From: a virus
Lineage: Duplodnaviria > Caudoviricetes
DNA length: 64,000 bases
Direction: 5' to 3' (one strand)
IMG/VR virus record: IMGVR_UViG_2823592041_000002
Location: 1-64,000 of that record
Position numbers and translations under genes: made by a program. A model generated the notes under the pieces. The model had not been told where the DNA came from and ran no database searches. It was given only the letters and a program-made list of their open reading frames with translations. Below, piece by piece: positions 7,714-34,074 of the stretch; within the stretch, counting starts at the first letter, position 1, and each line of letters begins with the position of its first letter.

Positions 7714-7986
7714 TTACCATGCTTCATAATAAAGGATACCGCAAAGGTTAGTTTCTGAGATTCTACCTTCTTCTTTAAGCTCTTCCAAAGCATTTTCAAT
7801 ATCCTTTATTTCATAATCATCTGAGAATTTTATCATAATGTCGTCAAAGTTTGGATTAGTTTGTCTTTCTCCTACTTTCTTAATCCAACTATATATAGTT
7901 TCTTTCAGCATATTTTTATCTACTTTTTTTGTTCCTCTCTGAGAACTTTGTAAATATCTGCCTTGATGTCTGGATTTCCACCACAC
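7714..7986 (-). CDS. winged-helix-like protein
   Basis: DIENALEELKEEGRISE pattern; true start probably MLKET. Confidence 0.55.
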   Translation of the reverse strand: MWWKSRHQGRYLQSSQRGTKKVDKNMLKETIYSWIKKVGERQTNPNFDDIMIKFSDDYEIKDIENALEELKEEGRISETNLCGILYYEAW

Positions 7987-8135
7987 AAAGCTATAGCGAG
8001 TGATGTGTTTAAGGTTTTCATCGCACCTTTCCTATCACCCTCTTCTAACTTTCTAATAACTCTATTAAATAGTGGTCTATACTGTGGATATTTTTTATAG
8101 AGTTTTTTTACACTCCCTATAAAAGATTCATTCAT
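7920..8135 (-). CDS. hypothetical protein
   Basis: ORF track. Confidence 0.6.
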   Translation of the reverse strand: MNESFIGSVKKLYKKYPQYRPLFNRVIRKLEEGDRKGAMKTLNTSLAIALCGGNPDIKADIYKVLREEQKK

Positions 8136-27622: not shown

Positions 27623-27880
27623 TTATGATTCTTCTTTAGACCTTTTTCGAATTTCAAGGACTTCATCACATTCTGGACAAAACTTCTTTTCATTTATATT
27701 TATAGACTCTTTAAGACAATTGTCAATACCATGCTTCATTATTTGATTTGAATAATACTCTTCTGCAAAAAGATGACCCTTTGGGCATTTAAAAATAATT
27801 TTTAAAGAATAATCTAAAAATTCTAATGGTTTACCATTAGTTAACTTTTTACCACTCTTCAAACTATAAATTTTACCCAC
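27623..27880 (-). CDS. Zn-ribbon hypothetical protein
   Basis: CPKGH...CPEC. Confidence 0.55.
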   Translation of the reverse strand: MGKIYSLKSGKKLTNGKPLEFLDYSLKIIFKCPKGHLFAEEYYSNQIMKHGIDNCLKESININEKKFCPECDEVLEIRKRSKEES

Positions 27881-28239: not shown

Positions 28240-30246
28240 CTAATATGACCCTCTTACATATCTACCACGGCCGATAGATGGAGCCTTTACTTCTTTTGTT
28301 ATATTAAATTGGGAATTTGATTTAGTTGACGAATCATTTATAACCGCAACATCACCTTTCGATTGTTTTGGTGAATTCATTTGCATGTTAGATTCCTTTA
28401 AGGTAAGTTCAGCTTCTACAAGTTTAGTGTTTTCAGAGTCTAAATTTCCGGTTTGTAATAATGCTTGAAGAGTTTGGGCGGAAGCGCCTTTAAGTTTAGA
28501 AGAATCAACAGAATTCTTACCCCAATCATCAATAAACAGACCAGAATCTGCTGCTTTAGATACCAATTCTTTTGATTTTTTAGGATCTAGTTTTGACCCA
28601 CCTTCTTCTTTCCCACCAATACCCATTTTATCTAATAATGAACCTATTATTGGGGTCTTTTTAAGCATGGACATCCAGTCAAAATCAAAAATGCCCATAA
28701 TTGCCCCTGCGACACCTTTAAGGGTTGCCACGGCAGTATCCCACATACCATCAAAAATATTTGAGATTTTTGTTGATATGTCTGTCCCAAATATGGAATC
28801 TACTATATCAACAATAGCTCTGAATGGCCAAAATATAATACTTGCTACACCTTTATAAATATCTTTCAATCCACCTGCAAAGTCACCTTCAAATATCTTC
28901 TTTATACCATCAAAAAATAAATTAAATGGTACCATGATAAAATCAATATATGCCATAAACCCAAATTTAACCCATTCTACAATTTTCTTCACACCATCAA
29001 TAAACAAGTTGACTGGTACCATGATACTATCGAACAACCACTCAAATCCAAATTGAATCCAGTCAAGAAGATTTTTATATGCATTGGTAAGAATCTCAAC
29101 AAAACTGAAAGAATCTAAAATTTTGGAAAAATTTTCAAACCCTAAAAAATCAGCAATATAGCTAATAGCACCTTTTATTAAATCAAATGGGAGGGCAATC
29201 AGTGTTCCTAGGAATGTAGAAATCCCAACTTTTAGAGATTCCATTATTGAACCAGTCTCTTCAAAAACATCAAACATAGATGTGACTGATTGATATAATG
29301 CATATCCAACATATGCTATTGCCGCTATTGTTCCTATTATCGGAGCAAGTGGTCCTAAAAGAGATATAAACCCACTTGATAAACTGGTAAGAGTTGCGGA
29401 GATTGCTGCAATTCCCATTCTTATAGATTGAAATTTATCTTTCATTTCTTGAATTGTGGGTATTTTAAAAGACCCCCCTTCACCATCTTTAATTTCAGGC
29501 ACATCTTTTGTTTTACCATCTTCTGATACAACAGCATCTTTCACTTTTTCAGAATTAGTTTTAAATAATGACTCTTCCTGTTGTTGTGTTTGAGATTTCT
29601 TTTGGCCTTCAAGTAATTCTAATTGCTTTTTTGCAACCTCTAAATTGCTTTCTGCTATTTTTCTCTCTTCATCAGTGAAAGATTTTCCTTTATCTGGATC
29701 TAATGCTTCTTGGAACTCTTTTATCTCATCCAATTTATCAACAATCTTATCATTGAGAATCTGGTCTTCTGACCTAGCATCAAGGGAATCTTTTAATTTT
29801 TCAAGTGGTGTGAAAATCTGATTTACCTTAATTCCACTAACAACTTCCATATCAGTGAAATCCATAATATCATCTTTAATACCTCTTGTGATTCCTGTTA
29901 GGGTATCTTTAAAAATATTCCCTGTTTTTAGAAATCTGCTAATATCATCCCTATCTGTTTTCTTCGGGTCTTTTTCTTTCTTGGCAGATTCTTCTGCTTT
30001 TTTAACTTTTTCATCTGCTACTTTTTTTTCTCTTATCCGAATTTCTTCTTCAATTCTACTTTTAAAATTATTTTGAGATATTCCAGTAAAACCATTTTTC
30101 AAACATTCTAAAATATCTTGAAGAGGATCATAAAGTAAATCTGAAAAACCGATATTATTAGTTTCATGTATTTTTCTAAGGGTTTCTTCCGATTTTTTTA
30201 GATTAGAACCCATATCAGGTAAAGAGATGTTTTCAATAATAGTCAT
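28240..30246 (-). CDS. baseplate hub / tape measure protein (T4 gp29-like)
   Basis: Long helical protein with amphipathic aromatic repeats, downstream of gp26/gp51; TATAAATA at 30255-30262. Confidence 0.7.
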   Translation of the reverse strand: MTIIENISLPDMGSNLKKSEETLRKIHETNNIGFSDLLYDPLQDILECLKNGFTGISQNNFKSRIEEEIRIREKKVADEKVKKAEESAKKEKDPKKTDRDDISRFLKTGNIFKDTLTGITRGIKDDIMDFTDMEVVSGIKVNQIFTPLEKLKDSLDARSEDQILNDKIVDKLDEIKEFQEALDPDKGKSFTDEERKIAESNLEVAKKQLELLEGQKKSQTQQQEESLFKTNSEKVKDAVVSEDGKTKDVPEIKDGEGGSFKIPTIQEMKDKFQSIRMGIAAISATLTSLSSGFISLLGPLAPIIGTIAAIAYVGYALYQSVTSMFDVFEETGSIMESLKVGISTFLGTLIALPFDLIKGAISYIADFLGFENFSKILDSFSFVEILTNAYKNLLDWIQFGFEWLFDSIMVPVNLFIDGVKKIVEWVKFGFMAYIDFIMVPFNLFFDGIKKIFEGDFAGGLKDIYKGVASIIFWPFRAIVDIVDSIFGTDISTKISNIFDGMWDTAVATLKGVAGAIMGIFDFDWMSMLKKTPIIGSLLDKMGIGGKEEGGSKLDPKKSKELVSKAADSGLFIDDWGKNSVDSSKLKGASAQTLQALLQTGNLDSENTKLVEAELTLKESNMQMNSPKQSKGDVAVINDSSTKSNSQFNITKEVKAPSIGRGRYVRGSY

Positions 30247-30253
30247 AGTAAAC

Positions 30254-30442
30254 TTATTTATAATTCTTCATTTTGGTGTTCTCTTCTTCTATATGAGATA
30301 TTAGGAGAGATACATATATTTCTCTCTCAAATGGAAACATATTTTCAATTTCAGTTAGAGTGAACCTGTTATTATAGACTAAAACACTATTGGTTCTATA
30401 GTAGTTCTCTATATTATCGTGTGATAGCCCTAGGATAAAAAA
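30254..30442 (-). CDS. gp51-like frame lacking a start codon; probable -1 frameshift extension of gp26
   Basis: LSHDNIENYYRTN...LTEIENMFPFEREIYVSLLISHIEEEN; no upstream ATG/GTG/TTG in frame; T TTT TTA at 30442-30436. Confidence 0.8.
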   Translation of the reverse strand, partial: FFILGLSHDNIENYYRTNSVLVYNNRFTLTEIENMFPFEREIYVSLLISHIEEENTKMKNYK

Positions 30443-31149
30443 GATTGAACACCTTCTATAGTGTGGGATTCGGTTTTACCACATTTAGAACAAGTCCATT
30501 CCAAATCATAACATATTTTTGGCATAGTATCAAAAAACTCTTTAACACTTTCCATATGCTTTAAACTGAAATTTAAGAAAAAATCTTTCTTCTCTTGTGT
30601 TGAGAAGTCTTTCATCATGAAAGCATCTTCACCTTGAGTTACCATTTCTGCACACTCTGCTAAAACATTCAAAATAGATGAGAACTCATCTTCATTCGAT
30701 ATTTTAGAAACATCTTTGTATTTTGGATATCTCATTTTGATACTAATATTTCTCTCAGGATCTAAAAGAATTGTATTTGAATGGTTTTCATTTCTCTGAA
30801 CTCTAATTTTTTTCAAATCCATAAAAACGGTTTCAACATGGTCACAATCTGTCACCTCAACATGTTTCATCTTCAACTCTATGACATCACCAACAGATTT
30901 TTCTCTCAATCTCAAAAACACATACTCAATATCGAAAAGAGGTAATTTATCAACATCATCAATACTAGTACAAGAAGAAATTAAAGACTTCAAAGAATCT
31001 TGAATGATATTGATATCTTCTGAATTTTTAGTTAATTGAATATACTTCTCTTCTTTAACTAGAAAGGGTCTATATGTAAAAGTTTCCCCACTGGAAGGTA
31101 GTGTATCACTAAATCTTGGCGCATTTAGAACCGGAAGTTTTGTGCTCAT
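30430..31149 (-). CDS. gp26: baseplate hub assembly chaperone (T4 gp26)
   Basis: LPS.G...YRPFLVKEEK, FDIEYVFL.LR.KSVG, FFDTMPK, IEGVQSF. Confidence 0.9.
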   Translation of the reverse strand: MSTKLPVLNAPRFSDTLPSSGETFTYRPFLVKEEKYIQLTKNSEDINIIQDSLKSLISSCTSIDDVDKLPLFDIEYVFLRLREKSVGDVIELKMKHVEVTDCDHVETVFMDLKKIRVQRNENHSNTILLDPERNISIKMRYPKYKDVSKISNEDEFSSILNVLAECAEMVTQGEDAFMMKDFSTQEKKDFFLNFSLKHMESVKEFFDTMPKICYDLEWTCSKCGKTESHTIEGVQSFLS

Positions 31150-32784: not shown

Positions 32785-34074
32785 ATGGGTTTAAAAGACT
32801 TAAAAAATAAATTAAAAAGTGTTGGTGTAGAAACTTCTAACAGATTTCGAAATAAAGCTGAGAAAAATCTGAGAGACAGTTTAATCAAAAATAATATGGA
32901 CTACGGAATTCAGAATAATATAAAAAATTCAATCCAGAATGGTAAAATTGAAGTAAGTGATAGAAGTTTAGAAAAAATTGCAAAACAAAATATAAAAGTC
33001 CCAAAATTCTCAACTCCTAAAACAAAATCAGAAATAAAAAACTTTGAAAAAGGGAATGGATCAGAAATTTTACAAAGTGCTTCTGAAATTGGAATGGGTG
33101 GTTCTCCACAAATCATAGACCATCTAAAAGAACAAGTATCCTCTAAAATGGAAGACCTTATTTCGAAAACTAAATCCAAAGTACTCCAACCTTTAAATGA
33201 CAAGGTTGAAAAGAAAATTTCAAAAGCACCAAAGAGTTCAAAAAGTGCTTTTGATAGTAAAAATTCCAATGTAAAAAATCACCCAGCATATAAAACAAAG
33301 ACTAATGCTTATGAATCAAAGGTGGAATATTTTAAATTTGTTGCTGACAATCAACCTAGAATTATATTTGAAATTGACGGTTTAAGGTCTATCGATACTG
33401 AGGATTCACAAGGTAATAAAGCTTCTGGTGGCAAGGCGAGAACTAAAACTGGTGGAGTAGAGCCACTTAAAAAGGTGGCATTCCCAATTCCACCAGGGAT
33501 GTTGACTTCTACTTATGGATTTGTTTATGATACACAAGAAAAAATTGGATTTGATGCTGATTCTATTACCACAAAATTGTCTAAATCTTTTTTAGGTAAG
33601 GCAATGGGAAAGGCAGGTGCAATTGGGGATGCGGTTCTTAGGGAAGAGGGTGTTGCTATTAATCCAAATCAAGAACAAGTTTTTAGTAGTGTTGATTTTA
33701 GAAGTTTGACATTTGAGTTTGAAGTTTTTCCAAAAAATGAAAAAGAATCTGAACATTTGGATAGGGTTATCCACATGTTTAAATATTTCTCATCACCCTC
33801 CAAATCGGGAGATGCTGGTTTATTTTTGAGATATCCAAATTTATGGAAAATAAGTTACAGTGATGGTGTTGGTGGTAGTGCTGGTGTAGCATTTCAAACT
33901 AAACATTGTTATTGTCAGAAAGTTGAAATAGGGTATGGAAGTGCAGATGGGTATATGTTATTTAAGTCCACCAATAAACCAACCTCTGTTAGAATAAGCT
34001 TAGCATTTGTTGAAAATGCTTATATTTTGAGGGATGATATTGGAACAACTTACACTGGGGGAGGTAAGTACTGA
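32785..34074 (+). CDS. baseplate tail tube cap (T4 gp48-like) with long N-terminal extension
   Basis: INPNQEQVF..VDFR.L.FEF..FPKNEKES, LRYP; TATAAATA at 32756-32763. Confidence 0.8.
   Translation: MGLKDLKNKLKSVGVETSNRFRNKAEKNLRDSLIKNNMDYGIQNNIKNSIQNGKIEVSDRSLEKIAKQNIKVPKFSTPKTKSEIKNFEKGNGSEILQSASEIGMGGSPQIIDHLKEQVSSKMEDLISKTKSKVLQPLNDKVEKKISKAPKSSKSAFDSKNSNVKNHPAYKTKTNAYESKVEYFKFVADNQPRIIFEIDGLRSIDTEDSQGNKASGGKARTKTGGVEPLKKVAFPIPPGMLTSTYGFVYDTQEKIGFDADSITTKLSKSFLGKAMGKAGAIGDAVLREEGVAINPNQEQVFSSVDFRSLTFEFEVFPKNEKESEHLDRVIHMFKYFSSPSKSGDAGLFLRYPNLWKISYSDGVGGSAGVAFQTKHCYCQKVEIGYGSADGYMLFKSTNKPTSVRISLAFVENAYILRDDIGTTYTGGGKY

Follow-up and report, generated by a model that had tools for sequence, protein, structure and literature searches.

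The gp26 locus and its second reading frame

We have analysed a stretch of 64,000 nucleotides from a tailed virus (Duplodnaviria; Caudoviricetes), a T4-like marine phage not in culture, corresponding to positions 1 to 64,000 of the IMG/VR record IMGVR_UViG_2823592041_000002 and called here the window. Our subject is the 3' end of its gene for a gp26-like protein of the T4 baseplate family, where a slippery run of Ts lies next to the stop codon and a second reading frame, similar to the C-terminus of T4 gp51, continues in the -1 phase. The best reading of this arrangement, to which we would give a probability of about 0.8, is a programmed -1 frameshift yielding two proteins, gp26 (239 amino acids) and a fusion gp26-51 (about 298 amino acids). 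The features concerned are the following:

31721-31164, minus strand: tail-tube-fold gene, gp19/gp54-like, 185 amino acids, directly upstream of gp26
31149-30430, minus strand: gp26, zero frame, 239 amino acids, stop TAG at 30432-30430
30450-30456, minus strand: Shine-Dalgarno-like (SD-like) GAAGGTG (Glu232-Gly233-V), 9 bases from GG to heptamer, possible upstream stimulator
30442-30436, minus strand: slippery heptamer T_TTT_TTA in the gp26 frame, read directly from the codons
30436-30254, minus strand: -1 frame extension, gp51-like C-terminal domain, 60 codons (ILGLSHD...NYK) plus TAA
30246-28240, minus strand: open reading frame (ORF) of 668 amino acids in the tape-measure position, by place and size a probable gp29-like tape measure

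A preliminary description of this locus had claimed an in-frame U UUU UUA at the end of gp26, followed by a gp51-like frame lacking a start codon, and both claims hold. The gene ends in the codons TCT (30444-30442), TTT (30441-30439), TTA (30438-30436), TCC and TAG (30432-30430), with a run of six Ts (T6) and a single codon separating the heptamer from the stop. An open -1 frame extends from 30475 as far as a TAA at 30256-30254 and reads NRIPHYRRCSIFFILGLSHDNIENYYRTNSVLVYNNRFTLTEIENMFPFEREIY...NYK before that stop; the part that follows the heptamer comprises 60 residues, ILGLSHDNIENYYRTN...ENMFPFEREIY...NYK, and matches phrog_634 ('baseplate hub assembly catalyst', E 5.9e-22) as well as positions 227-276 of the 282 positions of phrog_150. 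No ATG, GTG or TTG occurs in this frame of the window ahead of the conserved part, its earliest ATG being the M of 'ENM' and the preceding Val and Leu codons being GTT, GTC, CTA and TTA. Neither does the list of ORFs of at least 40 amino acids in the window contain one in the frame of the extension.

The gp26 ORF matches the Pfam family PF12322 (T4_baseplate) over residues 16-238 with E 1.1e-51 and 176 bits, the curated cut-off being 24.5 bits, and phrog_150 ('baseplate hub') with E 1.7e-55. It is the sole PF12322 match in the 136,879-base record to which the window belongs (76% complete), no second gene of the family being found there. A profile search of gp26 against PDB gave nothing meaningful (best E 0.026), and its ESM Atlas search nothing usable. 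The gene upstream has the fold of a tail tube protein (Pfam Phage_TTP_2, E 2.2e-9; phrog_45 'tail tube', E 2.4e-35) and a weak BLASTP match to T4 gp54 (E 0.001). Downstream, the 668-amino-acid ORF starts 8 bases beyond the TAA of the extension, which gives the order tube-fold gene, gp26, extension and tape-measure-position ORF. No Pfam family matches this last ORF; an ESM Atlas feature search places PF25671 (T4_Tape_measure) clusters on top (0.95 and 0.94), as a lead only, and the proteins found in the same place in Pelagibacter phage HTVC008M and Caulobacter phage Cr30 match tape-measure PHROGs. Its place, its size and the language-model lead make it a probable gp29-like tape measure.

A heptamer by itself is weak evidence, because 187 in-frame X_XXY_YYZ sites, 23 of them T_TTT_TTN, occur in the ORFs of at least 100 amino acids of this window, which has a guanine plus cytosine content of 32.8%. 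Only five of the 187 lie within 10 codons of a stop, and the -1 frame behind these stays open for 60 codons at gp26 vs 1, 1, 10, and 17 codons at the others, the gp26 site being the only one with a long open frame. The weight of the case comes from conservation across relatives.

Conservation of the heptamer and of the -1 phase

The preliminary description had proposed looking for the heptamer at the 3' ends of other gp26 genes, and we have found T_TTT_TTN in phase with gp26, and the extension in the -1 frame, at 100 of 100 evaluable loci of the frameshift type (the window, three isolates, 12 contigs found through gp26, four cyanophages, 79 contigs found through the extension, and Aeromonas phage phiAS5). 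A blastn search with a 2-kb query, covering the tube gene, gp26 and the start of the 668-amino-acid ORF, matched other phages only from the extension (30363-30267), with 73-86% DNA identity; these were HTVC008M, two Synechococcus phages, and Cr30. In a domain this small, such nucleotide identity is unusually strong. In HTVC008M, Synechococcus phage S-SRM01 and Cr30, gp26 ends in xxT TTT TTN, a small 'gp51' ORF lies in the -1 frame, and this frame stays open across the gp26 stop. The annotated ATG of HTVC008M sits inside the conserved part, with the conserved residues LSHIDLETYYDL upstream of it. The frameshift layout was also seen in all 12 IMG/VR contigs retrieved with gp26, in four of four cyanophage records where the extension is unannotated, and in phiAS5 (NC_014636.1), whose gene ends GAT TTT TTC GCC TGA with the extension in -1.

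To avoid a bias from the gp26 C-terminus, 80 contigs were fetched by the extension profile alone (pattern [ML]xP[WFY]ER[EDQ][IV]Y). A gp26 domain was located upstream in 79 of them, and the 80th ends 44 bases short of the match. The extension is in the -1 frame in all 79, behind the heptamers TTTTTTC (58), TTTTTTT (16) or TTTTTTA (5), and the zero-frame stop follows the heptamer after one codon in 70 loci, immediately in eight, and after nine codons in one. The loci are diverse: the 89 full-length gp26 proteins fall into 84, 54 and 24 clusters at 90, 70 and 50% identity, and the gp26 of the window is only 26-36% identical to the clustered proteins outside its own clade. All 51 aligned gp26 relatives match PF12322. 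In the alignment of the extension, amino acid conservation sets in immediately past the heptamer, ahead of any start codon.

The synonymous positions of the site are conserved as well. The codon ahead of the run ends in T in 79 of 79 loci (AGT 35, AAT 19, TCT 9, GCT 8, and GAT 8), the residue before Phe-Phe varying among Ser, Asn, Asp and Ala, and the first Phe codon is TTT in 79 of 79. In the same genes the background of T-ending codons is 59, 78, 81, and 32% for Ser, Asn, Asp and Ala, and TTT makes up 73% of Phe codons. With 24 rows, one per 50% cluster, the chance of finding all codons T-ending is P 1.1e-4, and that of finding all TTT is P 5.6e-4.

Homopolymers are error-prone, and an error of assembly or sequencing, or the decay of the gene to a pseudogene, could in principle account for the shift, the true gene being a continuous one of 298 amino acids, of gp51 type, with T7 instead of T6. 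The verification of the T6 run that the preliminary description had called for was made on contigs. A 40-kb contig from the probable source run is identical to the window; another, from an independent study, matches 30195-30456 with neither differences nor gaps, though towards gp26 it reaches only 14 bases beyond the heptamer; and the contigs of four sequencing runs list no insertion or deletion at the locus, rare T7 variants being beyond the resolution of contigs. The five closest contigs, from other samples and with 68-96% protein identity, have the identical TCT TTT TTA TCN TAG, and the -1 relation is kept in 100 of 100 loci whether the run is T6, T7, or T8. We consider an error or a decayed gene extremely unlikely.

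The fusion might also arise by normal translation if RNA polymerase slipped on the T-run and added one U to some of the transcripts, since the site is homopolymeric and an extra base would bring in the -1 frame. Longer runs are usually required for productive transcriptional slippage, and here the run is only T6 in the window and in 63 of the 79 relatives (58 ending in C and 5 in A). The X_XXY_YYZ phase is moreover constant, with the zero-frame stop 0-1 codons on in 78 of 79 loci, and this phase matters to ribosomes but is of no consequence for a polymerase. An enrichment of GAGG upstream, described below, suits a ribosomal stimulator too. Slippage by the polymerase seems quite unlikely to us.

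Another explanation is that the extension is translated alone, as a small gp51 peptide without any fusion, either through re-initiation by ribosomes that have terminated at the gp26 stop or from a non-canonical start (AUC at 30436-30434, or a later AUA). A separate small 'baseplate hub assembly catalyst' of 40-57 amino acids is indeed annotated in four records, 31 of the 79 relatives have an ATG beside the gp26 stop, about three codons past the slip site, and the 26' product annotated in T4 (see below) makes unusual initiation plausible in the gp26 family. Counting from the upstream stop of the extension frame to eight codons past the heptamer, however, ATG, GTG and TTG are all absent from 39 of the 79 loci, as they are from the window. 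Where such ATGs exist, the sequence ahead of them is the T-run itself, with no ribosome-binding site, and the SD-like element is about 24 nucleotides away. Conservation runs from the heptamer on and extends upstream of the annotated start in HTVC008M and phiAS5. A peptide made separately would leave both the T-ending codon before the run and the constant -1 phase unexplained, and T4 gp51 carries the same domain fused to a gp26-type domain. Independent translation of the extension is for these reasons very unlikely.

The preferred reading remains a -1 slip of the ribosome, and the surroundings of the heptamer offer some candidates for its stimulation. A Gly codon (GGN) three codons ahead of the run is invariant in 54 of 54 cluster representatives, and an SD-like tetramer lies within 20 nucleotides upstream in 49 of them. 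The Glu codon preceding the invariant Gly is GAG in 20 of 32 cases vs 26.6% elsewhere in the same genes (binomial P 2.2e-5, with rows that are related to one another); the window has GAA GGT, a weaker SD-like form. This upstream GAGG gives only a statistical hint of a ribosomal stimulator. The near-adjacent zero-frame stop may also act by slowing the ribosome. Strong local folds appear in lineages elsewhere (14 of the 54 representatives at z < -2 against mononucleotide shuffles), and a lineage-specific downstream stimulator may exist in these.

Several observations weigh against a frameshift in the window. The downstream sequence folds unremarkably (z -0.36 and -0.56 for 56- and 96-nucleotide folds against shuffles), and neither a hairpin of the dnaX type, 5-9 nucleotides past its heptamer, nor covariation in the clade or the family was found. 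A stem of GGGCUAUC with GAUAGUCU, 5 nucleotides after the heptamer, was suggested for the clade by RNAalifold over six members and was rejected, having 0 compensatory pairs and being partly broken in the window. A hairpin proposed by hand for the whole family (columns 13-20 with 25-32) fared no better, with 58.6% paired vs 57.4% and 88 of 500 shuffles reaching as high. RNAalifold over the 54 representatives gave no consensus structure, and the sequences do not support a stimulatory hairpin in the clade of the window. The conserved Phe-Phe motif itself favours T-rich codons, and the ATG present in 31 of the 79 relatives would permit a separate small gp51 in those phages. Lastly, the tape-measure identity of the 668-amino-acid ORF is not based on homology, its BLASTP matches to T4 gp29 (E 0.10) and to the HTVC008M tape measure (E 0.060) being not significant.

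An observation on the gp26 family itself concerns cysteines. Weak zinc-ribbon matches were obtained for Zn_ribbon_Elf1 in 7 of 51 proteins (best E 3.4e-5) and for the TFIIS type in 8 of 51, and the consensus of the 51 phages has KCxxxC and CxKCG where the copy in the window has DCDH and CSKC. The family may contain a split zinc ribbon.

T4 gp26 and gp51, and the neighbouring genes

Seven phages with the T4 layout, that is, with a separate full-length gp51 (T4, O157 typing phage 6, VR7, fHyAci03, an RB49-like phage, Aeromonas AS4, and one IMG/VR contig), were compared with the frameshift-type loci, and the heptamer was found in the last 25 gp26 codons of none of them. The T4 gene 26 ends GAG TTC TTT GAG TTA CTA TAA, where the Phe-Phe is kept and the slippery run is absent. 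It is followed by gene 25, and gene 51 is separate and divergently transcribed.

T4 gp51 matches PF12322 over residues 1-201 (E 3.9e-52), phrog_150 over residues 3-248, and phrog_634 with E 1.2e-23, and T4 gp26 reaches only position 235 of the 282-position phrog_150. BLASTP of T4 gp51 against T4 gp26 gives E 2e-6, and a profile of marine gp26 proteins matches residues 6-185 of T4 gp51 with E 1.5e-6. The extension profile was aligned by hhalign to residues 207-243 of T4 gp51 (E 6.8e-5, probability 63%); pairwise BLASTP of the extension against T4 gp51 was not significant (E 0.23). As far as these matches indicate, T4 gp51 joins an entire gp26-type domain to a homologue of the extension, which is the architecture predicted for the fusion, and it would represent a hard-wired long form of gp26. 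Database notes already imply that gp26 and gp51 belong to one Pfam family, and we make no claim of novelty on this point.

T4 resembles the proposal for the window in having a short and a long form of one PF12322 fold (gp26, 208 amino acids, and gp51, 249 amino acids), the tail at the C-terminus of the long one being the counterpart of the -1 frame of the window. It differs in that they come from two divergent paralogous genes, and in that gene 26 has no slippery site and precedes gene 25. A tree built from 37 gp26-type domains has three groups, namely T4-type gp26, T4-type gp51, and frameshift-type proteins, with support of 86/63, 100/100, and 98/96, respectively; the frameshift-type rows include 18 picked at random from the 54 representatives, the others being left out. 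The tree is unrooted, and either layout may be the older one.

Table 2 of Leiman et al. (2010; PMC3004832) lists T4 gp26 and gp51 as hub assembly chaperones, and the same paper describes gp51 as absent from the final particle and also cites genetic studies placing gp26 in the hub. The T4 record annotates in addition 26', a product of gene 26 with an internal start (C-terminal 95 amino acids; 7803-8090 of the examined stretch), so that T4 gene 26, too, gives two proteins, though in a different way. Phage phiAS5 is classed in the Straboviridae, yet it has the one-gene layout (tube gene, gp26 with T_TTT_TTC, and -1 extension; 1235-2184 of the examined stretch), and therefore both solutions occur within one family. 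Its annotated 40-amino-acid 'catalyst' starts within the conserved extension.

The genes around the locus include the following features of the window and of two relatives, the latter in coordinates of the stretches examined:

32888-32316, minus strand: gp4-like head closure gene (PHROG match)
32358-31723, minus strand: gp2-like DNA end protector (PHROG match)
32785-34074, plus strand: gp48-like gene, divergent from the late structural block
2629-2961 in HTVC008M: extra ORF, 110 amino acids, hypothetical
2593-2841 in Cr30: extra ORF, 82 amino acids, hypothetical

The last two lie between the extension and the tape measure gene, a position in which the window has no such small ORF. In the window, the gp4-like and gp2-like genes belong with the tube-fold gene, gp26 and the 668-amino-acid ORF to one late structural block of the minus strand. 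As listed, the gp4-like ORF has a TTG start and shares about 100 bases with the divergent gp48-like gene; its PHROG match is confined to residues 46-189, and so the real start is probably an internal ATG. Downstream of the 668-amino-acid ORF there is one of 85 amino acids (27623-27880, minus strand) with a CPKG...CPEC spacing like that of small zinc ribbons, accompanied by ORFs of 111 and 175 amino acids, and none of these three matches a PHROG family.

The proposed slip and its place among known systems

What the sequences show is the anatomy of the locus, its conservation and its correlation with layout; the slippage, its ribosomal nature and the roles of both proteins are inferred from these. 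Most ribosomes would read through TCT TTT TTA TCC TAG and produce gp26 (239 amino acids). A minority would undergo a tandem -1 slip on U_UUU_UUA, where the tRNAs in the P and A sites would re-pair with UUU UUU, and would continue in the -1 frame with AUC CUA GGG... to produce gp26-51, which would comprise the whole gp26 domain followed by a domain of 60 residues that shares homology with the C-terminus of T4 gp51. The preliminary description had inferred such a fusion and put it at about 297 amino acids; the fusion still stands as the reading, whereas the length becomes 298 (238 + 60) when the tandem slip takes place after TTA has been decoded. If the pair works as lambda G/GT does, the gp26 part common to both would bind the tape-measure or hub complex encoded just downstream, and the long form, the rarer one, would make a second contact through its extension, the ratio between both being set by the slip rate. 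T4 would make an equivalent short and long pair from its paralogous genes 26 and 51. Very probably, a single gene does here the job of T4 genes 26 and 51, by means of ribosomes slipping one base on the conserved T-run.

The -1 frameshift of tail assembly chaperones (lambda gpG/gpGT; Levin 1993; Xu, Hendrix & Duda 2004) is summarised in Atkins et al. (2016; PMC5009743), where the G-T frameshift is described as conserved 'except T4'. The preliminary description had assigned the locus to this type, and all the sequence-level predictions of a G/GT-type frameshift are borne out, in support of that interpretation. The likeness includes two overlapping frames located after a tube-fold gene and before the tape-measure position, which mirrors the lambda order V-G-T-H, a heptamer close to the end of the short ORF, a predicted long form made of the short one plus a start-less C-terminal domain, and T4 counterparts that are assembly factors. 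There are differences too. No sequence relation to the lambda proteins was detected, Pfam Phage_TAC_7 being touched by only 2 of 51 gp26 proteins (best E 0.057, a lead at most), and gp26 is longer (239 amino acids), belongs to PF12322 and shows the weak zinc-ribbon matches in several members. The T4 proteins are described as factors for assembly of the hub, not the tube. The lambda slip site is G_GGA_AAG, and the heptamer of the window type is U_UUU_UUN with the zero-frame stop 0-1 codons away.

In E. coli dnaX, a -1 frameshift takes place on A_AAA_AAG with an SD-like element upstream and a hairpin downstream. The locus described here is similar in its proposed -1 slip on a homopolymeric heptamer and in the possible SD-like stimulator about 9-10 nucleotides upstream (the GAGG enrichment). 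It differs in that the clade of the window has no supported downstream hairpin, and in that the shift would lengthen the protein, while in dnaX it shortens it. The slip site of HIV-1 gag-pol, used by the eukaryotic ribosome with a downstream stem-loop, is also U_UUU_UUA, a heptamer identical to ours in an unrelated biological setting.

No report of a gp26/gp51 slip was found in a full-text literature search, whose coverage excludes most subscription journals and supplementary files. Gp26 and the extension are not joined in any of eight frameshift-type records inspected, the extension being unannotated or truncated to an ORF of 40-57 amino acids, and a tblastn search with the extension matched 536 phage records. 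As far as we have searched, this would be a case of the known -1 frameshift of tail chaperones, in a protein family and phage group for which we have found no printed description. A wider proposal, which we hold at little better than even odds, is that throughout the T4 superfamily the two tail assembly chaperones are gp26 and gp26-51, that the G/GT rule of long-tailed phages has no exception, that T4 represents a derived state, or an alternative one, with the paralogues 26 and 51 in place of the slip, and that the slip is tuned by the SD-like GAGG 9 nucleotides upstream and not by downstream RNA structure.

The tail-chaperone frameshift is a textbook example of a conserved recoding event in long-tailed phages. 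If our reading is true, T4-type phages follow the G/GT rule, despite T4 being cited as its one exception, and the puzzling hub 'catalyst' gp51 of T4 would be explained as the long form of gp26. The finding corrects the annotation of the extension in phage records, and the one-gene and two-gene solutions would provide a natural test of why a fixed ratio of short to long form is needed.

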